64,000 nucleotides of DNA from a virus (IMGVR_UViG_2595698619_000001:1-64000), one strand, 5' to 3'; shown: positions 24,224 to 54,611, counted from the stretch's first letter. Notes: generated by a model from the letters alone, not told the origin. Made by a program: numbers and translations.

Positions 24224-25132
24224 CTAAAAATCGAGTACATTTGTTCCACCACCTCTACTATCTTCTCTCATATCAACACCCCCAATTCTTGAAGCGTCGT
24301 AATTAGTAAAGAGCACTTCTTGGGTTACACTATGCTCTTGTTTGTTACCACTTGGACCGTTTTGATTTGTTTTGGCATCATCCTTATACACGTTCCAACC
24401 AGTCAGATTAGTTCTATATAATTGAGAATCGTAAGAAGAGATACCGACATACCCGTCCATATTACGCGCGACGCTCAACAGTTCTTCATGGTCTTCATCA
24501 GAAAACTCATTAGAACCGTAAGCACCTTCTGAGTTTTCTCGAACCTCTACAGGATATGGTGGGTCCAAATAGAACACGGTCTCTTCAGCGTCATATTCCT
24601 CGAGTAGCTTGATAGCATCTCGATTTTCTATTTGAACGTCTGAGAACCTCTCAGCTACGACTGCCAATTGCTCTATCTTATTCCTATACTTGTTAATATC
24701 CAACGGAGATTCGCCACGTATTTGAGTTATTGTACGTGCCCATTCTCCTTTACTTCGAGCTTCAAACATCCTAGAGTACCTTCCTTGCTCGCAAAGAACG
24801 AAAAACAATCGAGCACGTTCAATTTTTTCTAATTTCTCGATACCGTCAGACTCTAACTCAACAGCACGCTCAAACTCATTCCTAGAATAAGGAGTTAATT
24901 CGAGTTTTCGGATGAGTTCTTCAGCGTCGTCTCTCAACACTTCAAAGAAATCAGTAACCAGCTTTTCCACGTCATTATATGTCTCATGCTCAACTTTTGT
25001 GCGGTTGCAGAGTATCGTTGCTGAACCACCGAAAGGTTCTACATACCTTTTCGTAATAGGTAAATGTTCTAAGATAAAACTACAACTCCTGTACTGCGAA
25101 CCGAAGTAGGTGAAAGGGTAAATCTTACTCAT
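24224..25132 (-). CDS. Dam-like N6-adenine DNA methyltransferase
   Basis: EPFGGS, YNDV, LDPPY; clearly AT-rich. Confidence 0.9.
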   Translation of the reverse strand: MSKIYPFTYFGSQYRSCSFILEHLPITKRYVEPFGGSATILCNRTKVEHETYNDVEKLVTDFFEVLRDDAEELIRKLELTPYSRNEFERAVELESDGIEKLEKIERARLFFVLCEQGRYSRMFEARSKGEWARTITQIRGESPLDINKYRNKIEQLAVVAERFSDVQIENRDAIKLLEEYDAEETVFYLDPPYPVEVRENSEGAYGSNEFSDEDHEELLSVARNMDGYVGISSYDSQLYRTNLTGWNVYKDDAKTNQNGPSGNKQEHSVTQEVLFTNYDASRIGGVDMREDSRGGGTNVLDF

Positions 25133-26303
25133 CGTTATCGCTCCATGGAACCTCAATTGACACCCGTTCCGAAGGTTCTTTCGGGTTAACGTCCCTCCAC
25201 GACTGCTCAGACGCTATTTTACGTACCGTCTCCTCAGCAACGTCGTACTCCCATGCTATTTCGGCTTGTGAGTAGTCACTGTTGACGATTAGCCACTTGA
25301 TGACTGCCACGTCATCTTCGGCAAGTTGCGAATTACCGTTATCTTCGCCCGATACGAACGTCTCGGGCTGTCGCATAGCACGGTCCTGCATATTATCAGA
25401 GTGGTCTCCTGAGTAGAGATGCTCTGGGTTGACACAGGACTTGTTGTCACAGTGGTGGAGAACGAAGTCGTCCTCAATCACTCCGTACTCCAGCATGTAC
25501 GAGAACCGATGGGCGAATACCGACTCTCCAGCGATGAACATTACACCGTAACCGTGTCCGTCGTCAGTCCCCTTCCACTCCCAGCACTCATCTTCGTCGC
25601 GTCGGTCGACTTTCGCCCAAAACTCACCGTCATGCAACTGCGTGTAGACGGAAGTCGCAGTTTTCTCACCGAACCCCCCGACACTTGCTATATCAGAAAC
25701 GGTTGCGTTCTGAATATCACGCATACCGCTGAACTCTTCACCGAGGTCTCGTGCCCGCGTCTCTCCAACCCCCTCCAGCGAACCGAGTGCCCGAAGGTAG
25801 AACGAAGCGTCCTTCTCTACGACAGACGCCTGTAGCGACGACGCTGACGGGTCCTCCTTGTGTTTCCTTGCGAGGCGTATCGCCATGTCCACGAGCCCAT
25901 CTGCGTCGGAGCAGAAGCGCACACCTTCGAGATATCGCACGTCGGTCGAGGCGACGCTTCCGACGAGTGACGATGCCGAGATGTTCGTCCCGGTCAGCGA
26001 GCGGAAGTCCTCCTGATTCCCCTCGATGAGGATGTACGCGGGTCCGTCGAAGTCGACCAGTTTCTGAATCTGCTCGTCCAGGCGCGTCCCCTCCTTACCC
26101 ATCAGCGTGCCTGCGTAGTCGCTGGGTGTCTTCCGCTCGAACACCACGGTGAGGTCGCTGTCGTCGAAGGTGAGTTGCAGGTCGCCTTCGTCGAGCGCAG
26201 CGAGTTTCCAATCCTCAACGTCCGGGTGGTCGCTGAGGGCGGTTAGCATCTGCGGTGCGTCCTGCTCGTGTACGTCGAGTTTGACTGTGACTTTCTCTTT
26301 CAT
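25125..26303 (-). CDS. ERCC4/XPF nuclease-HhH fused to an HNH endonuclease
   Basis: GD..ERKTPSD, ILIEG, two HhH motifs, then FWAKVD..CWEW..HHCDNKSCVNPEHL. Confidence 0.88.
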   Translation of the reverse strand: MKEKVTVKLDVHEQDAPQMLTALSDHPDVEDWKLAALDEGDLQLTFDDSDLTVVFERKTPSDYAGTLMGKEGTRLDEQIQKLVDFDGPAYILIEGNQEDFRSLTGTNISASSLVGSVASTDVRYLEGVRFCSDADGLVDMAIRLARKHKEDPSASSLQASVVEKDASFYLRALGSLEGVGETRARDLGEEFSGMRDIQNATVSDIASVGGFGEKTATSVYTQLHDGEFWAKVDRRDEDECWEWKGTDDGHGYGVMFIAGESVFAHRFSYMLEYGVIEDDFVLHHCDNKSCVNPEHLYSGDHSDNMQDRAMRQPETFVSGEDNGNSQLAEDDVAVIKWLIVNSDYSQAEIAWEYDVAEETVRKIASEQSWRDVNPKEPSERVSIEVPWSDNDE

Positions 26304-26437
26304 TCTGACCACCTGAGCATGAGGTGGAGTGCGATATTCGTAAGCGCTTCTGCCAGGCAGAAGATGACGCGCATGAACGCGAAGAACATGAGCGTCCCGA
26401 GGACGATGGCGAGTAGGAGGACAGGTTCAGATACCAT
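26300..26437 (-). CDS. Small membrane peptide
   Basis: MVSEPVLLLAIVLGTLMFF; coupled. Confidence 0.45.
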   Translation of the reverse strand: MVSEPVLLLAIVLGTLMFFAFMRVIFCLAEALTNIALHLMLRWSE

Positions 26438-26579
26438 CGGATGTACTGAGTCCTCCTGCTTCCTCGCCTACAGTGTTCGTCGCGCAGTCGGGACAGGCGT
26501 GTACGACTCCATCGTTGTCGCCCATGACGCGAGCGAACTCCGCGGAGACGTGACCGTCGCAACCCTGACACTCAGGCAT
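26427..26579 (-). CDS. Small haloarchaeal Zn-finger protein
   Basis: MPECQGCDGHVS.EFARV.GD...ACPDC. Confidence 0.7.
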   Translation of the reverse strand: MPECQGCDGHVSAEFARVMGDNDGVVHACPDCATNTVGEEAGGLSTSDGI

Positions 26580-35453: not shown

Positions 35454-36569
35454 TTAGAACTCGAGCACGTTGTCGCTTTCGCCGTCGAACCAACCGTTCT
35501 GCCACCGCGTGCGAATCTGATACGCCCAGTGCATGACAGAACGCTCGTATGCCTCGAAGTTACGATTCTGAACGATGTCTGGGTCAACGAGGTGCGACCC
35601 AGCAACGTCCCGCGGTTTTGGGAACGCCGCTGCTTGATAGAAGTCGGAATCCGGGTCCTCGCCCATTACGTCGAGCGTCGGATTCTCGAACTTCCAGTCG
35701 TGTCCCGACCAGTAACGATTAGCAACGTTCGCCATCTTGTTGATGGCGTTGCCGTCAATCGAGACAATATCACCGTCGAACTCCCTAATCATGTCCATCT
35801 GCTTCGCAGGAGCGCCTCCGAGAAGGTGAATATCCCGACCGTGGTAGTCGATTAGTTCGCCTTCTGCCGCGCCGTAAGTCGTCGGGACACTGTATCCCAC
35901 GACCATATCGTCTGGGACGTGCTCGACCTGGTTCGACCCGTGCGGGACGACCTGAACGTTCTCCGCGTACTGATTCAGGATTTCCGCGCGTTCGTTGATG
36001 AGCGAGATGTTCGAGTCGGGATGAGACGGGTCGTGCTTGGTGTAGTCACCGCCGACCACGTACTCAGGTTCGTACTTCTTGCACGCCTGCACGAGACGGT
36101 CGAACTCCGGGTTGTGCCAATCCATGTCTATGAAGTGGATTGGGATGCCGTCCTGCGCGAGTCGGTCGATATTGTCCAGTCGACCGCCCGTCTTGAACCC
36201 GTACTCGTATGCGATTCTCATGTGCTCGTGCCCCGCGGTCGTTATCACGTCGAAAGGCAGTTCCTCCATCCAGTCAGGAGCGAGGTCGAACGGTGCGGGG
36301 TTGTCCTCGTCGTAGTCCCACCCACCTCGTTCGTACCTGAGCATCGACTCGTTCGCTTGTTTTCCTGCGGCGAGCGTAGCGTCGAAGACGTACTGATGAG
36401 CGGGTTGTCTGTCGGGCGTGTCTGTGTCGTTGAACACCTCGCTCTCGGGTTCCTCATCGACCACGTCGTCTGGGTCAGGGTCCTCGTCAACCTCAGAGAC
36501 ACCGTTTGTCTCTTCGTCGTCCGTCGTCGGACGCGCTATGGTCGACTCGTTACTGAACGGGTTTCCCAT
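35454..36569 (-). CDS. dpdA: Putative DNA guanine transglycosylase (archaeal-virus DpdA-like)
   Basis: TGT-like motifs FIDMD, IHLLGG, SIDG; directly downstream of folE in the que cluster. Confidence 0.6.
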   Translation of the reverse strand: MGNPFSNESTIARPTTDDEETNGVSEVDEDPDPDDVVDEEPESEVFNDTDTPDRQPAHQYVFDATLAAGKQANESMLRYERGGWDYDEDNPAPFDLAPDWMEELPFDVITTAGHEHMRIAYEYGFKTGGRLDNIDRLAQDGIPIHFIDMDWHNPEFDRLVQACKKYEPEYVVGGDYTKHDPSHPDSNISLINERAEILNQYAENVQVVPHGSNQVEHVPDDMVVGYSVPTTYGAAEGELIDYHGRDIHLLGGAPAKQMDMIREFDGDIVSIDGNAINKMANVANRYWSGHDWKFENPTLDVMGEDPDSDFYQAAAFPKPRDVAGSHLVDPDIVQNRNFEAYERSVMHWAYQIRTRWQNGWFDGESDNVLEF

Positions 36570-36570
36570 G

Positions 36571-37200
36571 CTATTCACCTGTGCGTAGCATCTGGAAAAA
36601 CTCGTCCTTGATATGCGCCTCGTCTCTGGCTTTCCCGCGTAGTGCAGTGGTGCGAGTCGCCGAGTGCGCTTCCTCGATGCCACGGCACGACATACACTCG
36701 TGCTCTGCGCGGACGAACACCACGACTGCCTGCGGATTCAGTTCCTCGTGGATGGCGTCTGCGATTTGGTTCGTCAGGCGTTCCTGCACCTGCGGGCGAC
36801 GAGCGTACCCCCGCACAACGCGGGCGAGTTTCGACAGGCCCACGACCTCCTCATCCGGGATATACCCGACGTGAGCGCGTCCTCGGAACGGAAGGAAGTG
36901 GTGCGCACACATGCTCTCCACCTGGATGTTGTCAACGATAACGAACTGGTCGCTGACCGACTCGCTATCCTCGAACGTTCGCTCCAGGTGCTCTCGCGGG
37001 TCGTTTCGTAATCCCTCGAACAGTTCGTAAGCGCGACTCTTCGCCAGGCGAGTCGGGGTGCCCGAGAGGTGCTCGTTGTCGAGGTCGAGACCCAGTGCCT
37101 CGATGAAGTCCTCCGCCGCCTGGACGGCAGCATCGTAGTCGACTTCTCCTGCTTTCATGTCGTCATCCATGACGACTTTAGTTTCTTCCTGTGGGTTCAT
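36571..37200 (-). CDS. folE: GTP cyclohydrolase I
   Basis: CAHHFLPF, GLSKLAR, QVQERLT, HECM..RG. Confidence 0.96.
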   Translation of the reverse strand: MNPQEETKVVMDDDMKAGEVDYDAAVQAAEDFIEALGLDLDNEHLSGTPTRLAKSRAYELFEGLRNDPREHLERTFEDSESVSDQFVIVDNIQVESMCAHHFLPFRGRAHVGYIPDEEVVGLSKLARVVRGYARRPQVQERLTNQIADAIHEELNPQAVVVFVRAEHECMSCRGIEEAHSATRTTALRGKARDEAHIKDEFFQMLRTGE

Positions 37201-40633: not shown

Positions 40634-41050
40634 TTACTGGAACCCGAGCTTGCCGCCACCTCCTGTCGAGTCACCGAACATGCCGCCCATGTCGCCCATC
40701 TGCTCTCTCATCTCCTCCATCATCTCCTCGCGTTCCTGCTGTCGTTCCTTGAGCCACTCGGTCATGTCGGGGCCGTAGATTTCCTTGCCGACCTGCGTGC
40801 CGACACTGCCCATCAGTTGGGAGAGACCCGCAGTCGACTGGTCGGACGCCAGCTCGATTTCTTTCTCCCATGCGACGTGCAGGAGAGTGAGCGCCTCAGC
40901 ACGAGTCAGGTCCACGCTCACAGGACGGTCCTCTTCCGTCTCACCGGCGCACTCGTCGCACGCCTCGTTCTCTCCGCACGTACAGGTCGCCCCGTCCGAT
41001 TCATCCTCCGCGTCGTCGAACCGCTCAGCGTCGTTGTCTCTGTCGTTCAT
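40634..41050 (-). CDS. Hypothetical protein
   Basis: Acidic ORF with CTC..C..C. Confidence 0.6.
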   Translation of the reverse strand: MNDRDNDAERFDDAEDESDGATCTCGENEACDECAGETEEDRPVSVDLTRAEALTLLHVAWEKEIELASDQSTAGLSQLMGSVGTQVGKEIYGPDMTEWLKERQQEREEMMEEMREQMGDMGGMFGDSTGGGGKLGFQ

Positions 41051-41611: not shown

Positions 41612-42072
41612 TACTGGATACCTCCAACCCACGTCTGCGACGAGATACCACCGCGCGGATTCACGTCGAAGGCGACGTGGAGTCGCTTCTGCACCTCGTC
41701 CTCATCGAGGTCCGGGTACAGGATTTCCGCGAGGTCCTGCCACACCTTCGCGGTGACTTCCTCGTGCGAGATTCGAGCGTCCTCGAACGACATGAGGTAG
41801 TACTTCAGCGACTTCAGTTCGACGATGAAGTCATCTGGGACGTACTCGATTTCTATCTCGCCGTAGTCGCGCACTCCTTCGCTCTCGACCTCATCCTCGT
41901 CGGCGTCCGGGTCCACGCCGTAGTCGACCGGACAGTTGGTCGAGAACTCCTTTGCGACGTGCCGGTCGGTCCTGTCCGTGTCAGGACGCGGGTTGGGCAC
42001 TGCCTGTAGCACTTCGCCGTTGATAGGGTCGTAATCCGGGTTGAACCGGAAAGTCACTTCGTTGTCTCCCAT
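41611..42072 (-). CDS. queF: QueF / QueF-like T-fold protein (preQ0 reductase)
   Basis: CP, ELKSLKYY, SHE, PRGGI. Confidence 0.85.
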   Translation of the reverse strand: MGDNEVTFRFNPDYDPINGEVLQAVPNPRPDTDRTDRHVAKEFSTNCPVDYGVDPDADEDEVESEGVRDYGEIEIEYVPDDFIVELKSLKYYLMSFEDARISHEEVTAKVWQDLAEILYPDLDEDEVQKRLHVAFDVNPRGGISSQTWVGGIQ

Positions 42073-42115
42073 CTGCGAATAGACGTTACTGACGGGAGGA
42101 CGTTAACCTGATTGT

Positions 42116-42700
42116 CTAAGATTCACCTCGTTTTTGGCTTGGCCACTTATGTTCAAATCCGGGCAGTGGGTCACCCATCCATTCTAAAATTCGCTGAGAC
42201 TGCGCCGTTCCAAACCGAAGTTGACCTTCACTAAACTTAACCATCCACTTCTGTTCTTGAAAGATTCGTTCAAATAATCTCCGCCGTTCTTGCTGTGCAT
42301 AATTCGAGATGAGCATGTTGGGAGTACCGATGGGAGTAGGACAGTAATGCCCGTCACAGCAATACCAAACTTTGAGTTTGAGGGGTGTTAGCGATAAGTC
42401 ATCTGGGAATCTCTTACCACCATCTATGTACCAGTCAGAATAAGAATTAAATACAGGTGAAGATTTAGTCGACCACACCCAAGTTTGAGAGTAATTCTCA
42501 GACGGATACTCCGACGATTTACGTTTGCTACCTTGTTTCACACCCAACGAATATTCCGAGAACTCATCATGCAACCACTCCAAGAACTCACGTTCGGTCA
42601 ATTCACATACGACCGAGCATGAATCTCCCCGTCGGTCCAAATACCCGTCACCAAGAAGTAACCCCTGTATAATATCGTCTTGCCTCTCTGTAAGTTCCAT
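42116..42700 (-). CDS. LAGLIDADG homing endonuclease
   Basis: IQGLLLGDG and VWYCCDG helices; AT-rich. Confidence 0.88.
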   Translation of the reverse strand: MELTERQDDIIQGLLLGDGYLDRRGDSCSVVCELTEREFLEWLHDEFSEYSLGVKQGSKRKSSEYPSENYSQTWVWSTKSSPVFNSYSDWYIDGGKRFPDDLSLTPLKLKVWYCCDGHYCPTPIGTPNMLISNYAQQERRRLFERIFQEQKWMVKFSEGQLRFGTAQSQRILEWMGDPLPGFEHKWPSQKRGES

Positions 42701-42861
42701 ACCACAGGTATGACTTCGTCTGCATTAACCACGTTGAAACTACCCAGAAAAGACGGCGTTCTTAGCCCGGGACAGCCAGCTACTCAAAGAGCTGACCGGC
42801 GCGCTCGAACGTCGCCGCGAAGTCATCAGCGACACTGACCTTGTAACCGTTCTCGTTCAGG

Positions 42862-43032
42862 GTGTTGACGAACGAACGAGACAGAAAAGAATACGTGAAA
42901 GGGTTGTTCTCATCATTAGACGTTTCACCGCGTTTTCACAACGGAGTGGTGGGGTTTCGAGTAGACGACAGTGGCAAGCTATGGGATTATATGGGTGATG
43001 CCGTGCAGGGGTTCGAGTACAAATGGCCTTGA
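42862..43032 (+). pseudogene. C-terminal remnant of a second LAGLIDADG endonuclease
   Basis: ...KLWDYMGDAVQGFEYKWP* versus RILEWMGDPLPGFEHKWP of 42116..42700. Confidence 0.7.
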
Positions 43033-43037
43033 CAGGC

Positions 43038-43892
43038 TCAGAAATCTAATACATCTCTTCCTTGGGTGTTGAACGAGGCAGAAGACGGGTCGTAATTCAT
43101 CACTAGCCTCTCAACAGATTTCTTTGAAGAATCACTTTGAGTAGTATAGTTACGGTCTCTGACCGTAACATCCCACTCACCGTTTTGCACCTCCTTTTCA
43201 AACGCAGGAGGTAACTCTTCATATGAGACGATGAACGACCCATCAATCTCACAAAGCACTTCGTAGAACCGTCCATGGTCGAAGTCTTCTTCATGCTCAT
43301 AATAAGCATCTCCTACACGGTAGTACGGAGGGTCATAATAGAAGAGTGTACCAGCACGGTCATATTTCTCAGTCAGTTCAGCATAGTCGAGGTTTTCTAT
43401 GATAACCTGGTCAAATCTATTCTGAATCCTTTTAACCTGCTCCTTTGTTCTCTCGTACTTGTAAGTAATCTCATCAGCAGGACACTTCGTTGTTGAATTG
43501 ATTCTAAAACCACCCCCATCAATTTTACCGGAGAAGGAGGTAGATTGGATGTAGAAGAACCTACCCGCTTTCGCTACAGGGTCCGTTGGCTCATCTTCCG
43601 ACCGCATATCCTCGACATATTCCTCATACAGTTCACGGGAGTATGGAGTTGATTCTAACCACTCGTACAACTCCTCACCTTGGTCACGGCAAACCTCAAA
43701 GAAATTAACGACTCGACCGTAAACATCGTTATAGACCTCGATAGTAGAACGGGGTTTGTTGAATAAAACAGCAGCAGACCCACCGAAAGGTTCAACGTAG
43801 CACTCATGCTCCGGCATATGCTCTATAATCCACGGAGCTATCGTTGTCTTACTACCCGGGTAGTTAATCGTACCGCTATTTTTCTTAGGCAT
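43038..43892 (-). CDS. Dam-like N6-adenine DNA methyltransferase
   Basis: YPGSK, EPFGGS, YNDV, YDPPY; AT-rich. Confidence 0.92.
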   Translation of the reverse strand: MPKKNSGTINYPGSKTTIAPWIIEHMPEHECYVEPFGGSAAVLFNKPRSTIEVYNDVYGRVVNFFEVCRDQGEELYEWLESTPYSRELYEEYVEDMRSEDEPTDPVAKAGRFFYIQSTSFSGKIDGGGFRINSTTKCPADEITYKYERTKEQVKRIQNRFDQVIIENLDYAELTEKYDRAGTLFYYDPPYYRVGDAYYEHEEDFDHGRFYEVLCEIDGSFIVSYEELPPAFEKEVQNGEWDVTVRDRNYTTQSDSSKKSVERLVMNYDPSSASFNTQGRDVLDF

Positions 43893-43894
43893 GG

Positions 43895-45139
43895 TTAGAA
43901 ATCAAGAACCGATTGACTCTTTGATTCATATTCCTGTACGCTGGAGTCCTTCCCGCCCGCCCAATCCTGATAGGCGTCCGGGTCGAGGTCGAGCACCTCA
44001 AGTTCGTCTCCCTCGAGACGGTGCTGGAGTGCCATTTGCCGACGTTCCTCTACGTCGAGGTCGCGTAGCAGGTCGAGCATGACGTTCTTGAAGTGAATAT
44101 ACGACCCGCTGAACTTGTACGTGGTCCCGTCGTAGTCCTTCAACTTGCGATAGACGCGAGCAGTCGCGGTGTCTCCCGATGCTTTGTCCAGCGAGTGCCT
44201 GAACCAAGTGGGGAACAGGTCGGGGATGTACCCCGAATATGCCTCGGTGAGGCGCACCTCTGCCGTCATGCGTGCGAGTGCGCCGGCGTATTTCCAGTAT
44301 CGGTAGTTGCGCGTCGTCTGAGAGCGTCCCAACCACTTGTCGGCACGCGCCAGAGCATCGTAAGCGACGCCTGCCTCGAGACCTCGGAACTCCTTCGCCA
44401 CCGCCTGGTCGAGCCAGATGACCAGGTCGTTCGGAGAGATGTCGTTGCCAGCGTACTTGTCGCCGCCGATGAGTTCCGGGATGGCGTCGAACTCTCCTTC
44501 CTCCCACTCACGGTCGTCGAACCCGAGTGGAACGTCGCTCTCCGCCATCATCTGTAGGTCGTTGATGGCAGAACGCAGGTCAGGACGTTGTGCGAGGCGT
44601 TCCTCGTCATGCTCGTCCAGTTCGACACCCTCGGACGCCGCGACCTCTCGAATCTTCGCCGCCCGCGACCGCTTCCCAAGTTTGAATTTCTCGGTGTTCA
44701 CCCGATTCTTGATGCCGTCTGGCACGTCATACTCCTCGTTCGCCGTGAGGATAATCGGGTTCGCGGGGGAACTGAGCGCGTCGTACAGCGGTTGCTTGTT
44801 AGCAGCGTGGTGCCACCCGTCCACCTCGTCGAGAAGGACGAGTTGACGCTGACCGTCTGCCGGCGACGCGGCGATGCTCGCCGCCATCTCCTCAATATCG
44901 TCTGTCTTCCGCGCAGACGAGGCGTTGATTTGATTGAGCGGCATGTCGAGAACGTCAGAGACGACGTATGCCGTGGTCGTCTTGCCTGTCCCCGGTGGTC
45001 CCACGAGCAACTGCCCCTGGTCGCCCGGTTCCCACTCCTCTGCCCACTCCCGAATCCGGTCGAGAGCGGCGTTGTTTCCTTGAATCTCGCTGAACGATTC
45101 AGGACGATACTTGTCTACCCAGGATTGATTCTCACTCAT
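43895..45139 (-). CDS. rfcL: Replication factor C large subunit
   Basis: WVDKYRP, GPPGTGKT, INAS, LDEVD, DLRSAINDLQ. Confidence 0.9.
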   Translation of the reverse strand: MSENQSWVDKYRPESFSEIQGNNAALDRIREWAEEWEPGDQGQLLVGPPGTGKTTTAYVVSDVLDMPLNQINASSARKTDDIEEMAASIAASPADGQRQLVLLDEVDGWHHAANKQPLYDALSSPANPIILTANEEYDVPDGIKNRVNTEKFKLGKRSRAAKIREVAASEGVELDEHDEERLAQRPDLRSAINDLQMMAESDVPLGFDDREWEEGEFDAIPELIGGDKYAGNDISPNDLVIWLDQAVAKEFRGLEAGVAYDALARADKWLGRSQTTRNYRYWKYAGALARMTAEVRLTEAYSGYIPDLFPTWFRHSLDKASGDTATARVYRKLKDYDGTTYKFSGSYIHFKNVMLDLLRDLDVEERRQMALQHRLEGDELEVLDLDPDAYQDWAGGKDSSVQEYESKSQSVLDF

Positions 45140-45331: not shown

Positions 45332-45829
45332 TCAGAAATCGAGTGGGTCCTCCACGGTGTAGTCGGGCTCCAGTTCACGCTCGTACACGACCATGCGATT
45401 GCCGCGGTCGGTGTAGTAGTAATCGACTGCACTGAACCCGTTATCCATCCAGAACTCCTCGAGGTCAGCAGTCGAGAGAACGTCTGCGACCATGACCTCC
45501 TTCCCGCGTTCCTCGGCGTACCGAACCGCCTCGTCGAGCAACTCGCTGCCATACCCCTCGTGACGGTCCCGAGCAGCGACAGCGATGTTACGGAGACACG
45601 CTTCCTCACGGGACAGGATGTCTGACTCGGCCCAAACCATGCACGCGCCAGACACGCGGTCTCCGCGCAGGAAATACAGGAGACGCCTGTCCTCGCGCCT
45701 GGCACAACGCTCGACGTTCTCACGTCGAACGAACCAGTACAGGTCCTGGGTGATTTCCACGTCCTCGAAGAACGCTTCTATCTCCTCGAGACGCTCGTCG
45801 CCGGGTTCTGCGACCTTGATTTCTACCAT
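45332..45829 (-). CDS. GNAT acetyltransferase
   Basis: IAV...RHEGYGSELL, FW..NGF. Confidence 0.88.
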   Translation of the reverse strand: MVEIKVAEPGDERLEEIEAFFEDVEITQDLYWFVRRENVERCARREDRRLLYFLRGDRVSGACMVWAESDILSREEACLRNIAVAARDRHEGYGSELLDEAVRYAEERGKEVMVADVLSTADLEEFWMDNGFSAVDYYYTDRGNRMVVYERELEPDYTVEDPLDF

Positions 45830-48564
45830 GAGAGAACACCTCCGCTACCGTCGTCGCCATCGTCGTCGTCACTACCACCTGCGAACGGGTTGCTGTTGTT
45901 GCTGTCCTCCAGTTCGACACCCTCTGTCTGCGCACCTGCCGCCAGTTCGTCGAAGTCCCATCCGACCTCCTCGAGGATAGGACGTAGCGGACGGTCGAGC
46001 GTTTTCTCGATATGCTTCTCGGAGTCGAGGTCGAACCCGTCCGGAATGTCGTCCCACCACTCCAACGCGAGAACGTCGGTGTTGGGTTTCATCGCCGGCG
46101 TCTTCTTGATGTAGTAAATCCACGGTTGGTCACCGTGCGACCAGTCGTATCCGAGATGCTCGTTCGAGTAGATGGACGCTCGCACCGACAGCGTGGGCGA
46201 CGAGTACGAGTGAATCGGGTCGTTGATGGTGCCCGGTTTTGCGATTTTCCGCAGTTCTATGTCCTGACTGCGGATACGGTCACAGAGGTCCTTGATGTAC
46301 GCGCTCACCTCGTCGAACCCCTCCGCGTTGAGAATCTTCTTGATGACTTCGGGTTGTGCCTCTTCGGTGAGTTCCGGGGAGTCACTGCGCTCTGACTCCA
46401 TCCCGGTGATGTTTGGCACGGGGACGATGTTACCGTTCTCGTCCTTCATGTACTTCCCCTCCTTCCATACGCAACCGCCCGCGTACCGCTTCTTCTTGTT
46501 GTACTGGAAGAAACGACGGAAGAGTTTCTCAAACTCGAACGCCCACGCATGATTCTCGTCCTCGGGCAGGTTGTGAGGCAGTTCGCTCAAGTCGATGAAC
46601 GGGTGGTCATCACCGAGACCTATGTCGTCTGCCGCACGCCCGATTTCTTCGTTGATACGACGCTCGACCTCCTTCCCGCGTTCGACGACCTTCTCCATCG
46701 TCTCACGCTCGGACAGGTCCTCGAACTCTTCGGGGTCAGCGAGGGACACCATCACCGAGTCAGTGTCCCCGTAGAGCACCTCGTACCCGAGTTCTTCGCA
46801 AATCTCCACGCCCGTCCACAGGATGAACCTCGAGAGACCTGTGATAGTGTCACCCAGTTCGGGAGACGACAGGCGGTAGTATTTGTTGTTGCTCACACCG
46901 AAGAAGGAGTTCATAATGACCTTAACCGCACGCTGCTTGTGGTCCCACACCTGGTACATGGGCGTGTCAGGGTCGTACCGATTCCGGTTGTCCTTCATGT
47001 CCTCGCGCTCACTGAACAGGAGTTTGAGGTACTTCGGCATGATACCCTCGTCGTCGAGTTTCAGACCTTGCCCCTTCTTAGCGTCGAACTCCAGATGCTC
47101 ACGCTTGATGGTCCCGCCGAAGTCGTCTTCCTTCGCCGGCATCCACGGAACGATAACGTCTGCCTCGTCGTTGTCGTCGGTCATCATCTCCTTCGAGATG
47201 TTCGCCGTGATAATCGAGGACGGGTAGAGTGACTTCAGGTCAATCACCCCGACCCACTCGGTGATACCGGACGACGGTGACAGGACGAGGCCTCCTTCCG
47301 CGTTGTCTACTTCCTCCGTGTCAGTCGAAGGCAGAATCTCATCGTCGCCTCGCCGGGACAGGACGAACCCGTCCACGAGACGCATGGCGGAGAACGTGTC
47401 GTAAATCGGGACACCGGTGAGGTCCGACAGTTGGTAGAAGAACCCGTGGATGTCCGCCATGTCGTCGAGAGCGACGAGCAACTGCGTGTCTATGATGTTA
47501 TACGCCGTGAGACGACTGCGGTCCTTCTCGTACCCGTCATGGATGTTGATGTCTTCGACCTTGCCGACGCCCAATTCTTCCTGGGACACGTAGTCGAGCG
47601 ACTTCGACCGCCAGTCGCTGAACACCATCTGGTCGCAGTACGCCCTCATCATGTCGAACCCCGGCAACCCGTCAATCCGCGCGACGGTCGTCTCCAGGTC
47701 GTTCCGGTAGTTGTGCGTGATTCCGCCGATGTCCGACATACGCCAGCGGTCGACTCCGTCCACCTTCTCCATGCGATTGAGGAGATATCGGTGGTCGAAG
47801 TCCTCCCAATTCCATCCCGACAGGAGGTCTGGGCGCACGTCCTCGATGTACGAGAGGAAGGCGTTGAGGAGCGCAGATTCGCTGTCAGCAATCGTCAAGT
47901 CGATGTCTGCGTTGACGTAGTCGGGTGCTAACTCGTGCCCGTTCCAGTGGTCACCGAGATGGTGTTTCACGTCCTTCCCGTCTACCGAGCGGTCAGGGTC
48001 GAGAACGAAAACGTCGTACTGCTCCTCCCGCGTGTCGTAGGCGGAAATCATTATGACCTCGCCCGTCGCTTCCTCGGTAAACTCGTCGAAACCCACGTCG
48101 TAGTCGGGTAGCGCCTCGATGTCCGCCATGACGACTCGAGGAGTAATCGACTCCACGTCCGACTCCTCGATGTCTGTCTCCACCTCAGATATGTCGCAGT
48201 GTTTCCTATCCGGCACGCGGATGTAACCCGACAACCCGTAGTCGACCGACACGCGACGACTGAACGGGATGTCTGCTTCGTAGGTCACCGAGAAGTCGTC
48301 TCGAATCTGCCCGACGTTCTTCGGGAGTTTCGTCACTACCTTCTTCAACGGTCGACCGTCGTACCCTTCGTACCCATGCTCCTCACGCACCACGCAGTCC
48401 TGGTCGGCGCTCTCGTGAGGCGGGACGAAACAGTACGGTTCTGTACCACCGATTATCGTTAGGTTCCGCTCGCCGTCTTCGTCGCGTCCGACGACTCTGA
48501 CGACGACTTCACCATCGTTGTCCTTGTAGTCGAGGTCCGTAACACGGACGAGTTTATCGCTCAT
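45823..48564 (-). CDS. polB: Family B DNA polymerase
   Basis: Exo DIE, GWN..FD, YNIID; DLKSLYPS, KVIMNS, YGDTDS, KKRY; no intein. Confidence 0.97.
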   Translation of the reverse strand: MSDKLVRVTDLDYKDNDGEVVVRVVGRDEDGERNLTIIGGTEPYCFVPPHESADQDCVVREEHGYEGYDGRPLKKVVTKLPKNVGQIRDDFSVTYEADIPFSRRVSVDYGLSGYIRVPDRKHCDISEVETDIEESDVESITPRVVMADIEALPDYDVGFDEFTEEATGEVIMISAYDTREEQYDVFVLDPDRSVDGKDVKHHLGDHWNGHELAPDYVNADIDLTIADSESALLNAFLSYIEDVRPDLLSGWNWEDFDHRYLLNRMEKVDGVDRWRMSDIGGITHNYRNDLETTVARIDGLPGFDMMRAYCDQMVFSDWRSKSLDYVSQEELGVGKVEDINIHDGYEKDRSRLTAYNIIDTQLLVALDDMADIHGFFYQLSDLTGVPIYDTFSAMRLVDGFVLSRRGDDEILPSTDTEEVDNAEGGLVLSPSSGITEWVGVIDLKSLYPSSIITANISKEMMTDDNDEADVIVPWMPAKEDDFGGTIKREHLEFDAKKGQGLKLDDEGIMPKYLKLLFSEREDMKDNRNRYDPDTPMYQVWDHKQRAVKVIMNSFFGVSNNKYYRLSSPELGDTITGLSRFILWTGVEICEELGYEVLYGDTDSVMVSLADPEEFEDLSERETMEKVVERGKEVERRINEEIGRAADDIGLGDDHPFIDLSELPHNLPEDENHAWAFEFEKLFRRFFQYNKKKRYAGGCVWKEGKYMKDENGNIVPVPNITGMESERSDSPELTEEAQPEVIKKILNAEGFDEVSAYIKDLCDRIRSQDIELRKIAKPGTINDPIHSYSSPTLSVRASIYSNEHLGYDWSHGDQPWIYYIKKTPAMKPNTDVLALEWWDDIPDGFDLDSEKHIEKTLDRPLRPILEEVGWDFDELAAGAQTEGVELEDSNNSNPFAGGSDDDDGDDGSGGVLSW

Positions 48565-48585
48565 CTAATCACCTGTTGTCGGTCG

Positions 48586-49197
48586 TCAGTAATCAAGCAC
48601 GTCATCCACGTCAACCTCGTCTATGGCTTCGGGGTCAGGACACTCAATCCTACCCGTTTCGACTAACCGGTGATGGGTGGCACACAGGGTGATGAGATTG
48701 TCTCTGGTGTGTGCATTATCCGGGTCGTCGAACTTCTTTACCTTGACGAGATGATGAACGTGCAGCGGGTCACTGACCATCTGCCCGCGTCCGCACACCC
48801 TGCACTCGTAGTTGTCTCGTTCGAGTACCATCTCACGTTTCTCGTCCCAGGTAGAACCGTATCGAGGACGCTCGTACCCGTCACGGTAGTTCGGGTTGCC
48901 TTCGCCCTTGATTGTCTCCGACTGAGCGTCGCGCATACAGTCGCCTCCGCAGGTTTCCTGGGTACGATACTCCCAACACTCGAACTCTTCACCGCAGATA
49001 CGACACTCTCGTGTCTCTTTAGCGAGCGACTCATCATGCACCATAGTGTGGTGACGCCTCATCCCCGATTCCGATTCAAAACCGTCGCCGCAGGTCGGAC
49101 AGTGCCACGGTAACCAATCGGAGTGTAGATTCTTCTTGTGACGGATGAGGGTTGAATCGCTTGCCAGTTCATCACCGCAGTATTCGCACTTCGGCAT
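48586..49197 (-). CDS. Zn-finger HNH endonuclease
   Basis: C2H2 fingers; RDNYECRVC, HVHH, NLITLCATHH. Confidence 0.88.
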   Translation of the reverse strand: MPKCEYCGDELASDSTLIRHKKNLHSDWLPWHCPTCGDGFESESGMRRHHTMVHDESLAKETRECRICGEEFECWEYRTQETCGGDCMRDAQSETIKGEGNPNYRDGYERPRYGSTWDEKREMVLERDNYECRVCGRGQMVSDPLHVHHLVKVKKFDDPDNAHTRDNLITLCATHHRLVETGRIECPDPEAIDEVDVDDVLDY

Positions 49198-49994
49198 TAG
49201 TATTTCCAGTACGAGAGATTCGCCATGCTCGTCTCCTGTGCCGGGCAGACAAACTCATAATCGCAAAATCCACAGTGCCCGCCCGGTTTCGCCGGGAACT
49301 CTCCTGCGCCCATCGCTTGCAGGAGCGAACGAGCGTACTGCTTCATCTGACTCCACTGCTCCTCGTCGGGAATCCGGTTCGCTATCTCGCCGTCACCGAG
49401 GTAGACGAACGTGACGTACTCCGGGTACTCTCCGTACTTGTTGAGGTAGGCGCCAGCGTACACCATCCCCTGAATCAGTTCGTCGCGCTTCCGGTAGTCG
49501 CGCACGTTCCCATCGCTGTCCTTTCGCTTGCCCGTCTTCCAGTCGAGGACACCTTCCTCGGTGACGATGTCCATCTTCGCGTTGAATCCTTTGTTGACCT
49601 CGCCACCGACATGATACTGATGCTCGACCTCGAACCCGCGAAACGTCATGTCCGCACCGAACTTCTCGATGTACTTCGCGGCGTTGTCGCAGCAATCCAA
49701 CCCGTTCTCGTACATCCACTCGGGGACGTCCGGGTTCTTCTCGCGGTACCTCTCCTTGAACCGGTGCGACAAGATACCGCTGTCTCGTATGCTCTCGTCG
49801 TCTAAGAGCACCTCCTCAATCGCCTCGTGAACTGCGGTGCCCATCTCTCGATACCCCTTCTCCGGTTTCGTTCTGTCCTCGTCGCGTGCGTAGTCGAACC
49901 ACCAACTGAGTGGACACTGCGCGAACTTCTTGACGCGCGACGCTGACAGGTAGTCGTCGAATAGTTCGTCTGGTACGTAGCGTTCCTTAGTCAC
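49197..49994 (-). CDS. Cas4/RecB-like PD-(D/E)XK exonuclease
   Basis: SAS..CP, GTAVH, DWKT, Q..VY, CGFCDYEFVC. Confidence 0.88.
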   Translation of the reverse strand: MTKERYVPDELFDDYLSASRVKKFAQCPLSWWFDYARDEDRTKPEKGYREMGTAVHEAIEEVLLDDESIRDSGILSHRFKERYREKNPDVPEWMYENGLDCCDNAAKYIEKFGADMTFRGFEVEHQYHVGGEVNKGFNAKMDIVTEEGVLDWKTGKRKDSDGNVRDYRKRDELIQGMVYAGAYLNKYGEYPEYVTFVYLGDGEIANRIPDEEQWSQMKQYARSLLQAMGAGEFPAKPGGHCGFCDYEFVCPAQETSMANLSYWKY

Positions 49995-50304: not shown

Positions 50305-50305
50305 T

Positions 50306-50494
50306 TTACTGGATGTCGTCGTCGAAGGTGTCCATCTCGTCGTACATCTCGTCTATCTCATCGAGTTTCGCCAGCGCCTGCTCCTTCGACTTCTCGTGTA
50401 CCTGCACCAGGTGCTTCAGTGCGTCCTTGCGCGAGTCGAAGTCAGTGTCGTGGTCGAAGCAGTAGTATCGACTGAAGTCACCCGAGGGTTTCAT
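50306..50494 (-). CDS. Small Zn-finger-like protein
   Basis: CFDH..F.....L.H...H. Confidence 0.55.
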   Translation of the reverse strand: MKPSGDFSRYYCFDHDTDFDSRKDALKHLVQVHEKSKEQALAKLDEIDEMYDEMDTFDDDIQ

Positions 50495-51474
50495 CGCTCG
50501 TACCCCTCCAGCGAGACGTACCGTGCGACGTGCAGGTCCGCGAGGAGCGAGTGGAACTGAACGTGCGGGTTCGCACCACGCATGGCACGCCAGTTCGTCT
50601 CCGCGAGTTTGTCGAGACACTTCGCTTTCACGTCACCGGGTAGGTCCTGCCGCTTGATGACTCGGAGGAACGAGTCGCAGAGTTGGTTCGTCGGGACGCC
50701 CTCCTTGAGAACCTCCACGTCGAGTTGCCGCATGGCATCGTCCAGGTCACCCTCGACTGCGGTGTTGACGATTTGCTCAACGAGCGCGTCGTCGACCGTC
50801 GAGACGACCACGTTGACGCCGTTCTCGTCAATCTCACCCTCGTATGCCGCCGCCTGCATGCTGTTGATGAGTTTGCGAGCGTCGCCGCCTGCCGCGTTGA
50901 CCATCAGTTTCAGCGTGTCGTCAGCGATGGTCAGACCTTCCTGCTCCGCGACGTTCTGCCCGATTTGGTACAGGTCGTCGTCCGTGAGCGGCGAGATGCT
51001 GAACGGGGCGCACCGCGACTGGATAGGCCCGATAATCTGCGACAGGTAGTTGCACGAGAGGAAGAACCTCGTCACGTCCGCGTGGTCCTCCATGATACGC
51101 CGGAGTGCAGTTTGCGCGTCTTTCGTGAGCTGGTCAGCCTCATCGAGGAATACGATTTTGTACTGATGGTCGCCAATCGTACCCTGGACGGCGTAGTTCT
51201 TCACCTTGTCGCGGATGGTGTCAATCCCACGCTCGTCGGAGGCGTTCAGTTCGAGGATGTTATTCCGCCAGTTGTCCTCGCCGTACTTCTCCTTGGCGAA
51301 CGCCTGGATGATTGCTGTCTTCCCGATTCCTTGCTTGCCGGCGAAGACGACGTGAGGCACGTCCTCGGTGCCGAGGAACTTCCTCATCCGCTTCACCACT
51401 TCCTCGTGCCCAACTATGTCGTCGAGCGTTTGAGGGCGATACTTTTCGACCCAGATTTTGTCGCTGACACTCAT
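50491..51474 (-). CDS. rfcS: Replication factor C small subunit
   Basis: WVEKYRP, GKT, ELNASDERG, LDEAD, ALRR, QSRC. Confidence 0.95.
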   Translation of the reverse strand: MSVSDKIWVEKYRPQTLDDIVGHEEVVKRMRKFLGTEDVPHVVFAGKQGIGKTAIIQAFAKEKYGEDNWRNNILELNASDERGIDTIRDKVKNYAVQGTIGDHQYKIVFLDEADQLTKDAQTALRRIMEDHADVTRFFLSCNYLSQIIGPIQSRCAPFSISPLTDDDLYQIGQNVAEQEGLTIADDTLKLMVNAAGGDARKLINSMQAAAYEGEIDENGVNVVVSTVDDALVEQIVNTAVEGDLDDAMRQLDVEVLKEGVPTNQLCDSFLRVIKRQDLPGDVKAKCLDKLAETNWRAMRGANPHVQFHSLLADLHVARYVSLEGYER

Positions 51475-51540
51475 GCTTCGTATGTTGTTATTCGCAAAGG
51501 GTTATCAGTCGTTTCGTCGAGAGAACGGGTCGCTGCTGGC

Positions 51541-52131: not shown

Positions 52132-52133
52132 GG

Positions 52134-52586
52134 TTAGAACCCCAGCACGTCGTCGCCAGTAACCTCAGACGCCGGGTCGCCCAGGCGATTGAGGAGGCGT
52201 CGTCCTTCCTCGGTGATGTAGTAGTACGACCGCCGTCCGTCCTTGCGTTCGTTCGCGTACCCCGCCTTGAGGAGCGCGGAGGTCGCAGGGGATGGCTCGA
52301 AGTCACCGCCCGCCGACAGTTCGAGCAGGTCGTAGTTGCTCAGCATCCGCCGCGGAGAATCCGCGTCGTTGTTGTCGAGCAGGTACAGGCACCGATGAGT
52401 CGGGTCGTCGTCCTGTACGGGCAGGTCCGGGTTGTACGAGGTCTCCTCGGACCCAGACAGGTCGCGTGGTTCGGGGTCGCCGTCCCTTTCGAGGACCCGA
52501 ATATCACCGTCGAACTCCGGGTTGTCGTACAGGAACGATACTGCTTCGTCGGTCGTGTCGAACGTCTTGATTTGTTCTTGCGTCAT
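52134..52586 (-). CDS. wHTH protein
   Basis: DGRRSYYYITEEGR wing signature; VLGF tail. Confidence 0.65.
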   Translation of the reverse strand: MTQEQIKTFDTTDEAVSFLYDNPEFDGDIRVLERDGDPEPRDLSGSEETSYNPDLPVQDDDPTHRCLYLLDNNDADSPRRMLSNYDLLELSAGGDFEPSPATSALLKAGYANERKDGRRSYYYITEEGRRLLNRLGDPASEVTGDDVLGF

Positions 52587-52587
52587 G

Positions 52588-53739
52588 TTAGTCCTCTATC
52601 CACTCCGCTTTCCCGCCGCCCCAACCGAAGGTCGGGCAGGATTCAGGTTCCTCCTTTCGCGTGCAGAGACCCAGCGACTGAATCGACTGGCACGACATAT
52701 CGGAGTACCCGCGGTTGTGGATTTGATTCAGGAACTTCCGTGTCTTGCTCCGGTCGGCGTCAACCCACCCGAGCGACATGAACATCTCCTCTATCTCTTC
52801 CTTGGCGAACCCTGCGTTGAACAGGAGAACCGCGCAGTTGAACCGCACCATGTGGTGCGGATTCGGTTGTACGATACGCTCGTACATACAGGGCATCTGG
52901 AGTAGTTCCTTCAGCATGTTCAGGATGCCCTGACGTTCGTAGTTCTGTACGTCTATCTCGACCTCGACCTCTCCACGCACTGTCGCCCGTTCCTCCAGGT
53001 AGTCGTCGTACACCTGCATTTCCGGACGTTCCCCATCGGGCAGAGGAATCTTACGAGGCGATTCCGACCAGTCGAGAAGGTCCTTCACCGTCAGGTCCTT
53101 CACGTCGTCCCGCGTGAGAGGCACCGTGTAGAGGTTACACGCCATCGTATGCGTGTCCTCGGTGATGCTCTCACCGCGGTCGGAGTCAACGTACACGCGC
53201 CTCACGTTCGGTATCCTGAGGATACGCTGCACGTCACCGATGAGTTGAATATCGAGCGTGTCGAGGTCCAGTTCATCGAGGTATCGTCTGACCGTCGTAG
53301 CGAGGTGCTGACGCGCCTGCAACTGCTCCTGGTACAGAAGGTGGAGGTGTAACCCGAACCCAGAGAAAACGCCCACGAGCGGTATCTGTTCGGCCTCTGC
53401 GCGCTCGGCGACCCTACGCGCGTCCTCGACGACCTCACCCAGGACCTCCTCAGCGAGGTCCAGGTCCTCACGCATGAGCATGACCTTCTCATCGTCGCGG
53501 TCAGTACGTGGGAACGCTGCTTCCTTCATGGGTGAGTCGAGGTCAATCGAGATTTTGTCCGAGACGACACCGCCGCCTTCTGTCAGGTCGAAGTGCGAGA
53601 TGGTGGCGTACAGGTTACGTTCGCCTTCGCACTCCTCGATGACTGCGTCCAGTTCACTCTCGCTATGGACGGGCCACTGCACCGGGTTACCGACCCGACG
53701 CGGGAACTTGCCGTACAGCAGTTTCTGAACTGGGTCCAT
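52588..53739 (-). CDS. Archaeo-eukaryotic primase, PriS fused to a PriL-like C-terminal domain
   Basis: IDLD, SGFGLHL, D..RILRIP; C-terminal PCM..H..R..YSDMSC....LC. Confidence 0.8.
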   Translation of the reverse strand: MDPVQKLLYGKFPRRVGNPVQWPVHSESELDAVIEECEGERNLYATISHFDLTEGGGVVSDKISIDLDSPMKEAAFPRTDRDDEKVMLMREDLDLAEEVLGEVVEDARRVAERAEAEQIPLVGVFSGFGLHLHLLYQEQLQARQHLATTVRRYLDELDLDTLDIQLIGDVQRILRIPNVRRVYVDSDRGESITEDTHTMACNLYTVPLTRDDVKDLTVKDLLDWSESPRKIPLPDGERPEMQVYDDYLEERATVRGEVEVEIDVQNYERQGILNMLKELLQMPCMYERIVQPNPHHMVRFNCAVLLFNAGFAKEEIEEMFMSLGWVDADRSKTRKFLNQIHNRGYSDMSCQSIQSLGLCTRKEEPESCPTFGWGGGKAEWIED

Positions 53740-53753
53740 AGCGAGTCAGGTGC

Positions 53754-54611
53754 TCAGTTCTTGTTGACCGGACCGATAACGTTCCGGAGCACCTGACCTT
53801 CGTACTCGTCCTGCACCACGCAGATGGGGTTGCCGTCGTCCGTCTCGATACGGACATCCCCCGACACCGTGCCGAAGAGTTCCTCGAACCCCTGGTTGTA
53901 CTCGTTCGACAGGTCGGGACCTTCGACGCTATCCGCGTTGAGCGCACCCCACGCGGCATTCCGTCGCTCGTCCTTCCCGACACTCAGGTACAGGTCACCG
54001 TCCTGGATGGTAATCGGGTAGAACTTCGTATCGTCGTCGTCGTTGACGATGTCTACGATACGCTGAACCTCGCGCACGCCCGTCTCGATGGTCGCCTCCA
54101 TCGGTTCGCCGTCACCGGTGAGGAAGGAGTGCGTCTCGTCGTCGAACCGACCCACAGCGTCGAGCGGGACCTCATCGAGGTTCGACTCGCTCGCGGGCAG
54201 CATGACGCGCGTCTGAATCGCTCCGTGGAACTGGAGCGCGTGACAGAGGCGGTCGTCCTCCTCACCGAGGAGCGTCAGTTCGACCGTACTGCTCGGGTCG
54301 TCCTGCGCGTAGTTGAGATACGTGAGGAAGTCCTCGACGTTGATAATCGCCTCCGCTGTCCCGTTGTTGTCCTCCACGAGGAGGTCTTGGTCGACCTCGA
54401 CCGAGTCGAGGAATCCCGCACCGAAGGTGGAGTACGAGATGACGCTGTTGTTCTGCTTGGAGGCGAGGAACCGCGCCTCACCGCCGCCCACGTTGACGTA
54501 CACCTCCGAGTGCACAGCGTCGCCGGAAGACGCCTTGAGCGACGCCTTCTTAATCATCTGTTCGAGTCGGTTCGCCTTCGCCGTGATAGTTGCCTTGGTG
54601 ACTTCAGTCAT
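53754..54611 (-). CDS. Divergent PCNA-like sliding clamp
   Basis: 285 aa, two similar alpha/beta halves, ends VIGP; context of two RFC subunits and PolB. Confidence 0.65.
   Translation of the reverse strand: MTEVTKATITAKANRLEQMIKKASLKASSGDAVHSEVYVNVGGGEARFLASKQNNSVISYSTFGAGFLDSVEVDQDLLVEDNNGTAEAIINVEDFLTYLNYAQDDPSSTVELTLLGEEDDRLCHALQFHGAIQTRVMLPASESNLDEVPLDAVGRFDDETHSFLTGDGEPMEATIETGVREVQRIVDIVNDDDDTKFYPITIQDGDLYLSVGKDERRNAAWGALNADSVEGPDLSNEYNQGFEELFGTVSGDVRIETDDGNPICVVQDEYEGQVLRNVIGPVNKN

Follow-up and report, generated by a model that had tools for sequence, protein, structure and literature searches.

A shared C-terminal tail on replication and DNA-modification proteins of a virus related to HVTV-1 is probably a lineage-specific, PIP-like docking code for the viral sliding clamp

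Background

In the viral sequence IMGVR_UViG_2595698619_000001:1-64000, eight unrelated proteins end in nearly the same four residues, [VP]L[DEGS][FYW], and the question raised by this locus is what a DNA polymerase, a clamp loader subunit, several DNA-modifying enzymes, a nuclease and a winged-helix protein have in common that they should share a tail. The stretch, referred to here as the window, comprises 64,000 nucleotides, the opening part of a viral genome of 102,105 bp that carries direct terminal repeats. Its nucleotide identity is 87% to the Haloarcula viruses HVTV-1 and HVTV-2 (Druskaviridae) and 79% to HCTV-1 and HCTV-16. A minus-strand module for replication and nucleotide metabolism occupies 17.7-57.7 kb, with the structural genes downstream. 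A preliminary description of the window, made from the sequence alone, had proposed that the tails bind a divergent viral sliding clamp encoded at 53754-54611.

Tails of the PCNA-interacting protein (PIP) type are already known on family B DNA polymerase (PolB) and on the large subunit of the clamp loader (RFC-L), as are the common clamp-binding tails of phage T4. In T4, gp43, gp55 and gp33 bind the clamp through a C-terminal hydrophobic-acidic motif that can be swapped between them and sits on flexible linkers that diverge, according to the portion of PMC2988020 available to us, so the T4 precedent invoked in the preliminary description is a real one. Accessible parts of two further papers report that about 30% of G in the DNA of HVTV-1 is replaced by preQ1 and that this DNA resisted every restriction enzyme tested (PMC6884629), and that 7-deazaguanine insertion is argued to be post-replicative, with DUF6610 named DpdA4 (Cui et al., PMC10516641). 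Here we describe the occurrence, conservation and relatives of the tails together with the fold of the putative clamp, and argue that the tails are probably a lineage-specific PIP-like code, which would dock replisome and DNA-modification enzymes onto the viral clamp. What is new is the extension of such tails to methyltransferases, DpdA4, an acetyltransferase, an HNH endonuclease and winged-helix or helix-turn-helix (HTH) proteins in an archaeal virus, the divergent PCNA-fold protein as their candidate hub, and the existence of lineage-specific dialects.

Results

Occurrence and conservation of the tail

On translation, all eight tails of the preliminary description were found at the gene ends it names, which lie on the minus strand. 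Genes were called over the whole 102,105-bp genome with a codon model, which gave 134 predicted proteins; eight of these end in [VP]L[DEGS][FYW]. All eight belong to the group of 49 minus-strand genes at 17690-57654; no protein called in the structural half has such an end. The same pattern occurs internally nine times in about 29,300 positions, from which about 0.04 matches are expected at C-termini. The corresponding binomial P of ~1e-16 is optimistic, since every tail pattern was defined after inspection of the data; with eight tails observed, a chance origin was ruled out. In an unbiased tally of C-termini, 'VL' at positions -4/-3 was the most frequent pair (7/134), and 'LDF' tied with 'DEE' as the most frequent C-terminal triplet, at four proteins each.

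The tail codons vary among the eight genes (GTA, GTG or GTT; CTC, TTA, CTT or CTG), all three stop codons are used, and the DNA 3' of the genes is unrelated. Selection therefore acts on the peptide, and a DNA-level motif such as a terminator, a promoter or the ribosome binding site of the next gene was ruled out on the same grounds. An artefact of gene calling was likewise ruled out, because the seven corresponding tails of HVTV-2 coincide with the ends of coding sequences annotated in GenBank.

The tails are kept in orthologues from HVTV-2, HCTV-1 and four metagenomic or viral contigs while the preceding linkers vary, as the preliminary description would require. In every family set compared, the last four residues were no less identical than positions -5 to -14; the HNH set, which includes tail-less paralogues, gave values of 0.20 and 0.18, respectively, and is uninformative. 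The clearest case is DpdA4, of which 12 orthologues (52-98% identical) end in VL[DEG]F (six), VLEDF (four), VMQY (one) or VLDA (one), behind a linker that differs in both length and sequence. PolB orthologues end in GVLSW (three) or GVLDF (one, locus L004), those of the acetyltransferase in PLDF or PLNF, and those of the winged-helix protein in VLGF, VLRF or VLEF, with one further end taken up in the Discussion. HNH orthologues with a different N-terminal half retain DDVLDY or DDPLDY, and HNH paralogues elsewhere in those genomes are without the tail. The HVTV-2 orthologue of the second adenine methyltransferase (63.6% identical) lies elsewhere in the module and ends ATDVLDF. The nearest homologues of the first methyltransferase in the phage collection are Dam enzymes of bacterial phages (33-39% identical), and all three that were checked have no tail.

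Comparison with the PIP box and with host clients

The preliminary description had named PolB and RFC-L as normal carriers of C-terminal PIP boxes, and the tail occupies just that place in both. Measured against the canonical PIP box, Q-x-x-[LIVM]-x-x-[FY]-[FYW], seven of the eight tails have V at -4 and F, W or Y at -1, that is, the expected residue classes at positions 4 and 7. The chain stops at position 7 in all eight, so that the second aromatic or hydrophobic residue of position 8 is missing. A search with the viral RFC-L gave 506 homologues at E<=1e-5; among the best 120, whose tails were tallied, 117 end in an aromatic residue (W in 103, F in 14), and many read Q-x-x-[AVI]-[LM]-[DSE]-[WF], with Q at -7. 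Judged by these ends, the viral RFC-L tail is a PIP box cut after the first aromatic. The truncated form also exists in cells, since the cellular RFC-L of Methanoperedens, Methanotrichaceae and Methanocella ends Q-x-[ST]-L-[FL]-D-F.

Host clients were compared at RFC-L loci, of which 46 out of 80 found in genomes were read (29 haloarchaeal, one viral-type contig and 16 from other archaea). At all 29 haloarchaeal loci the host RFC-L closes with Q-[SAT]-G-L-x-[DE]-[FW]-x. In two haloarchaeal genomes Fen1 ends QTGLD[RQ]WT and RNase HII ends QASLGDF or QRTLSEF, the latter protein also being truncated after the first aromatic; the two host PCNAs examined have an identical C-terminus. PolB and PolD2 of Hfx. 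volcanii have canonical PIP boxes according to the part of Winter et al. (PMC2737543) available to us. The viral tail is thus, by sequence, of the PIP kind and distinct from the host set: it lacks the Q, has V rather than L at position 4 and a near-invariant hydrophobic residue at position 5, and has nothing past the aromatic.

The viral clamp

The 285-aa product of 53754-54611, which the preliminary description had put forward as a divergent clamp, was modelled with AlphaFold2 (AF2). The best model (pLDDT 81.7, pTM 0.82; the other four models 53-60) has a PCNA fold in Foldseek searches, in agreement with that proposal. Against the PDB, 514 matches were obtained at E<=1e-3, and the top matches listed are all PCNA or clamp chains with probability 1.0. 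Target-normalised TM scores against PCNA chains were 0.63-0.83, the value for Hfx. volcanii PCNA (3ifv) being 0.83, and the matches include several PCNA-PIP peptide complexes, for example 1isq (P. furiosus PCNA with the RFC-L PIP peptide). By sequence the protein gave no Pfam match at E<=0.01, PF00705 was absent from the genome at E<=10, and a PDB profile search returned nothing at E<=10; hhalign against host PCNA gave a probability of 2.6%, yet the alignment was collinear over the full length. On the predicted model, then, the clamp is recognisable as PCNA by fold alone, where sequence models fail. Its HVTV-2 counterpart, gp101, is annotated as PCNA, and both RFC-L and the small subunit (RFC-S) of a clamp loader are co-encoded with it.

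Close relatives of the clamp numbered 14 in a set of 5.8 billion proteins, and 137 representatives were found at E<=1e-3 in a 50%-clustered library. In the phage collection, the clamp and the viral RFC-L were found in no viruses other than those of the HVTV/HCTV group. Homologues of the clamp family were also detected in 19 of 401 sampled haloarchaeal genomes (E 1e-23 to 1e-82; loci L183-L201 and L202-L237). At the two loci inspected closely the gene lies between paaABCD-like genes and nop5/fibrillarin, a housekeeping setting, and its product ends LP..W; no viral replication module was seen near the homologue at the 18 loci examined. To judge from sequence and neighbourhood, some haloarchaea seem to have a second, divergent PCNA-like gene that has not been described. 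These homologues have no bearing on the tails.

Tails in other viruses

Three distant viral contigs, designated G001, G002 and G003 contig 19, encode the same clamp family (E 7e-62, 4e-46 and 4e-67, respectively) and an RFC-L that is 45%, 37% and 54% identical to the one described here. IMG/VR held three RFC-L relatives above 37% identity, and PLSDB gave host RFC-L only. In G001 (33.7 kb, 47 predicted genes) six proteins end in W against 0.7 expected: RFC-L (SALDW), two N6_N4 methyltransferases (GAMSW and EATDW), a DUF6884 protein (SAITW), a Zn-ribbon protein (EADSW) and a 256-aa protein (GGMSW). In G002 (51.3 kb, 70 genes) RFC-L ends GIFSY, an N6_N4 methyltransferase GIFEY and a Rad3/XPD-like helicase TVFDY, with thymidylate kinase ending NGIFD. 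In G003 contig 19 (40.3 kb, 44 genes) RFC-L ends NSADW and a 582-aa protein with a sub-threshold TGT match (E 0.0023) ends SSADW. The three contigs thus have tails of the forms [LM][DS]W, [IV]F[SED]Y and SADW, which we term dialects, and a matrix of the four patterns, all defined post hoc, against six genomes was strictly diagonal. As these tails show, methyltransferases of two Pfam families (D12 and N6_N4) and DpdA/TGT-type enzymes carry the tail of their own virus's RFC-L. The dialects are the strongest new evidence obtained.

Two single genomes served as comparators. HRTV-24 (Hafunaviridae), which was matched by neither clamp search and is taken as clamp-less, has a PolB ending QTGLAAFC, a PIP box of host type, and the 66 genes predicted in the 50 kb examined showed no shared tail. 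HHTV-1 encodes a canonical but divergent PCNA, and its AdoMet methyltransferase (L241, 47712-48311) ends AKLGDFK, similar to the GLGDF core of the host PIP box; on such sequences, DNA methyltransferases with PIP-like tails may be general among haloviruses. Separately, at the metagenome locus L011 the open reading frame (ORF) directly 3' of the clamp gene (11004-11381, plus strand) ends DNVLGFIKDG, with VLGF four residues from the end.

Proteins of the module and neighbouring genes

The proteins discussed here are listed in Table 1. The preliminary labels of both adenine methyltransferases, RFC-L, the acetyltransferase, PolB and the HNH protein are backed by Pfam matches. Its 'DpdA-like' label for the product of 35454-36683 is also correct: the protein scores 200.1 bits against PF20314 (cut-off 27), is 87% identical to an HVTV-2 protein and is an orthologue of the family that the accessible part of PMC10516641 renames from DUF6610 to DpdA4. 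In HVTV-2 the DpdA4 orthologue is flanked by FolE, QueE, QueD, QueC and QueF, so that neighbouring preQ0/preQ1 synthesis genes accompany it as expected for a member. Its start is uncertain, orthologues being 338-392 aa long.

Table 1. Coordinates, support and C-termini of the tail-bearing proteins, the putative clamp and related products
Feature	Position	Strand	Support	C-terminus or remark
Dam (D12) adenine methyltransferase 1	24224..25156	-	Pfam, E 6.4e-22	GTNVLDF
DpdA4 (DUF6610), archaeal-virus DNA guanine transglycosylase	35454..36683	-	Pfam DUF6610, E 3.9e-59	ESDNVLEF
Dam (D12) adenine methyltransferase 2	43038..43892	-	Pfam MethyltransfD12, E 1e-25	GRDVLDF
RFC large subunit (clamp loader)	43895..45139	-	Pfam AAA/Rad17	SQSVLDF
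GNAT acetyltransferase	45332..45829	-	Pfam Acetyltransf_1	VEDPLDF
Family B DNA polymerase	45823..48564	-	Pfam DNA_pol_B and exo1	D/G-rich linker, then GSGGVLSW
C2H2 zinc finger and HNH endonuclease	48586..49197	-	Pfam	VDDVLDY
150-aa winged-helix protein	52134..52586	-	AF2 and Foldseek	TGDDVLGF
RFC small subunit	50491..51474	-	annotated gp96 in HVTV-2	SLEGYER, without tail
439-aa HTH protein	13638..14957	+	Pfam HTH_24	RVLDEF; HVTV-2 orthologue likewise RVLDEF
138-aa protein	40634..41050	-	no Pfam match	GGGGKLGFQ; orthologues end RVGFQ or PLGFQ after variable G-rich linkers
Divergent viral sliding clamp, 285 aa, proposed hub	53754..54611	-	AF2 model and Foldseek PCNA fold	

The product of 52134-52586 gave no Pfam match, and its winged-helix label has fold-level support. 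In the AF2 model (pLDDT 72) residues 62-135 form a winged-helix core, with top Foldseek matches to winged-helix proteins of the MarR, PadR, ArsR, TubR and F-93 kinds at E 3e-3 to 2e-2, and residues 144-150 have pLDDT <50, so the tail is predicted to be disordered. The HTH protein encoded on the plus strand ends VLDEF, as the preliminary description had it. By sequence it is plausible that this is a variant of the tail with one extra acidic residue, since VLEDF is found in four of the 12 DpdA4 orthologues. The end of the 138-aa protein is, on similar grounds, a possible variant with one extra residue.

Several observations concern the neighbours of these genes. Two metagenomic DUF6610/DpdA4 homologues (P0283 and P0284) contain GNAT domains in the same protein according to precomputed Pfam matches, and in the present genome the tail-bearing GNAT has a gene of its own; the fusion hints at joint action of GNAT and DpdA4, perhaps on the aminomethyl group of preQ1. 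The C-terminus of a Cas4-like PD-(D/E)XK nuclease (49197-49994, minus strand) is aromatic and conserved, reading MAN[LV]SYW[KR]Y in close relatives and VPWEEY or IDYIKF in distant ones, and may on sequence be a longer variant of a docking tail. A conserved GW[SG]GG.AEW.. closes the primase (52588-53739, minus strand), placing an aromatic residue two or three residues from the end; GGQCEY, NTPWK and ALYPYQ are the ends of distant homologues.

Two islands of low GC content, at 24001-26000 (0.49) and 42001-44000 (0.47), stand out against a value of about 0.59, and each holds one of the Dam methyltransferase genes (GC3 0.37 for 24224-25156 and 0.46 for 43038-43892). A low-GC ORF of 194 aa (42116-42700) lies beside the second of them. 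The RtcB ligase ORF at 22390-23988 (minus strand, 532 aa) matches the Pfam profile in two stretches, the best of which covers the first half of the RtcB profile only; an insertion such as an intein is possible from this pattern.

A C-terminus of another kind was seen in a 102-aa viral protein (3022-3330, minus strand), which ends HDGLGDLFG. The archaeal ribosomal stalk tail recruits translation GTPases, and in two haloarchaeal genomes P1, a stalk protein, has the ends GEGLGQLFG and GEGLGALFG, so the viral protein may, as its sequence suggests, mimic the P1 stalk tail. A blastp search found no orthologue of it in HVTV-2.

Discussion

How the tails may act

The reading we consider probable, docking of the tails onto the viral clamp, would work as follows. 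The tail, Φ-L-[D/E/G/S]-[F/W/Y]-COOH, usually placed after an acidic or glycine-rich disordered linker, would be a short linear docking motif of the PIP-box kind, ended at the first aromatic and mostly without the leading Q, and would insert into a hydrophobic pocket of the divergent PCNA-fold clamp. The viral RFC-L/RFC-S would load the clamp at primer ends, after which PolB and then the DNA-modifying enzymes would alternate on it, as on a tool-belt riding on new viral DNA. This belt would hold PolB, the loader, two adenine methyltransferases, DpdA4, GNAT, the HNH nuclease and the winged-helix DNA-binding protein, and both adenine methylation and the exchange of guanine for preQ1 would follow the fork. 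By analogy with gp33 and gp55 of T4, the winged-helix and HTH proteins could be DNA-binding factors coupled to the clamp. We infer that the clamp is the partner of the tails and that docking makes modification more efficient or more selective; preference for the viral over the host clamp is deduced from the dialects and from how the host clients differ.

Which partner the tails serve

The tails might instead be ordinary, somewhat degenerate PIP boxes for host PCNA or for both clamps, in which case the code would not be private and the viral clamp would be an extra copy. V at position 4 with an aromatic at 7 does keep the canonical h-x-x-a spacing, host RNase HII also stops right after the first aromatic (QASLGDF), and the methyltransferase of HHTV-1, whose PCNA is canonical though divergent, has the host-like KLGDFK. 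High salt strengthens hydrophobic contacts, and the pocket of HvPCNA accepts non-canonical residues, as the available part of PMC2737543 describes. Against this stand the sharp differences in tails between viruses of one clamp family and the uniformity of the host clients, in which Q, an L at position 4 and a non-hydrophobic position 5 recur throughout, at 29 of 29 RFC-L loci and in Fen1 and RNase HII. Moreover, PolB of the clamp-less HRTV-24 uses the host form, and the two host PCNAs share their C-terminus. We regard this reading as unlikely.

It is less probable still that the tails dock on another viral partner. Candidates would be the primase, RFC-S or the Cas4-like nuclease, all three of which likewise occur in all four viral lineages, or else a single-strand-binding protein or the scaffold of a replication factory; the PolB proteins of the distant contigs are without the dialect, which would suit such a partner. 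However, PolB and RFC-L are both tailed in the present virus, hence neither is the hub, and the partner they are known to share is the clamp. The tails of RFC-L are PIP-shaped, with Q at -7 in many lineages, and an extreme C-terminus behind a flexible linker is the usual site of clamp-binding motifs.

That the tails have no docking role, being a degradation or stability signal, a halophilic solubility feature or chance, is very improbable: acidic linkers are common in halophilic proteins and a terminal E or D is frequent among the proteins of this genome, but the tails far exceed chance expectation, are confined to the replication module, are retained in orthologues despite differing codons and are lacking from HNH paralogues and bacterial-phage Dam homologues.

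Several findings weigh against docking on the viral clamp as we propose it, in addition to the post hoc definition of the tail patterns. The Q of PIP position 1 is missing in seven of the eight tails, and that of RFC-L stands at -6, one position out of register; the GNAT tail has P at -4, where an aliphatic residue is expected. One orthologue of the winged-helix protein ends VLEV and one of DpdA4 ends VLDA. PolB of G001, G002 and G003 ends DPFSD, KNPFG and NNKWL, outside the local dialect, and the code is therefore not uniform. The metagenome locus L011, with a clamp 52% identical, showed no shared tail, and it also holds no RFC-L or PolB. The interdomain region of the clamp is well conserved across the family, so that pocket changes matching the dialects cannot be pointed out; there are about seven clamp/RFC-L pairs, and the hhalign residue mapping is unreliable. 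The 71-sequence clamp alignment was too diverse for a pattern scan. Finally, the sample consists of four independent viral lineages and one clamp-less comparator, and among the former G001 and G002 are fragmentary, at 29% and 48% completeness, while G003 contig 19 comes from a metagenome-assembled genome and is 40 kb long.

Relation to known systems

The nearest precedent is the gp45 clamp of T4 and RB69. There, as here, the clamp is virus-encoded and unrelated proteins finish in a short motif of hydrophobic and acidic residues, borne on flexible linkers that diverge from one another. Unlike in T4 and RB69, the present clamp has a PCNA fold and an RFC-type loader, the putative clients include methyltransferases, a transglycosylase, GNAT and HNH proteins, and the system is known from sequence and predicted fold. 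With the archaeal and eukaryotic PIP network (Q-x-x-[LIM]-x-x-[FY]-[FY]) the tails share their location at the C-terminus of PolB and RFC-L, the core of an aliphatic and an aromatic residue and the h-x-x-a spacing, whereas seven of the eight have no Q, all end at the first aromatic, and position 5 is a near-invariant L, or M or F in other dialects.

In eukaryotes, coupling of DNMT1 to PCNA ties maintenance methylation to replication forks. The viral methyltransferases resemble DNMT1 in having a clamp-binding peptide, putative here, and in a methylation that would follow the fork. They differ in that they are Dam and N6/N4 enzymes from two Pfam families, that their motifs sit at the C-terminus instead of the N-terminus, and that each virus has its own dialect. 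The product of 35454-36683 is an orthologue of HVTV-1 DpdA4, the archaeal-virus 7-deazaguanine DNA transglycosylase. The parts of PMC6884629 and PMC10516641 available to us make no mention of a C-terminal tail or clamp link of DpdA4, the main text of a 2021 halovirus survey (PMC8651126) has no occurrence of 'PCNA' or 'sliding clamp', and in the literature we found no prior description of PIP-like tails on halovirus methyltransferases or DpdA4.

A wider model can be offered tentatively, and we hold it to be possible rather than expected. Each lineage of clamp-encoding haloviruses would have its own co-evolving docking code, and its clamp would be an orthogonal tool-belt insulated from the clients of host PCNA. 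Self-marking enzymes (adenine and N6/N4 methyltransferases, DpdA4 and TGT-like proteins) would be wired to viral forks, acquired modification genes would need the local tail as an entry ticket, and winged-helix and HTH proteins would couple transcription to the clamp as in T4.

Conclusions

The docking hypothesis is directly testable with peptides and with the cultured HVTV-1/Haloarcula system. If it is true, the tails would provide a simple sequence rule for recognising new clamp clients in haloviruses, including proteins of no known family, and the dialects would provide a compact case, found in nature, of a peptide code co-evolving with its hub, along with ready-made orthogonal pairs of clamp and peptide. 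It would also extend the tool-belt idea of T4 to a PCNA-type clamp in archaeal viruses, and would explain the fast and heavy post-replicative self-modification of archaeal virus DNA.

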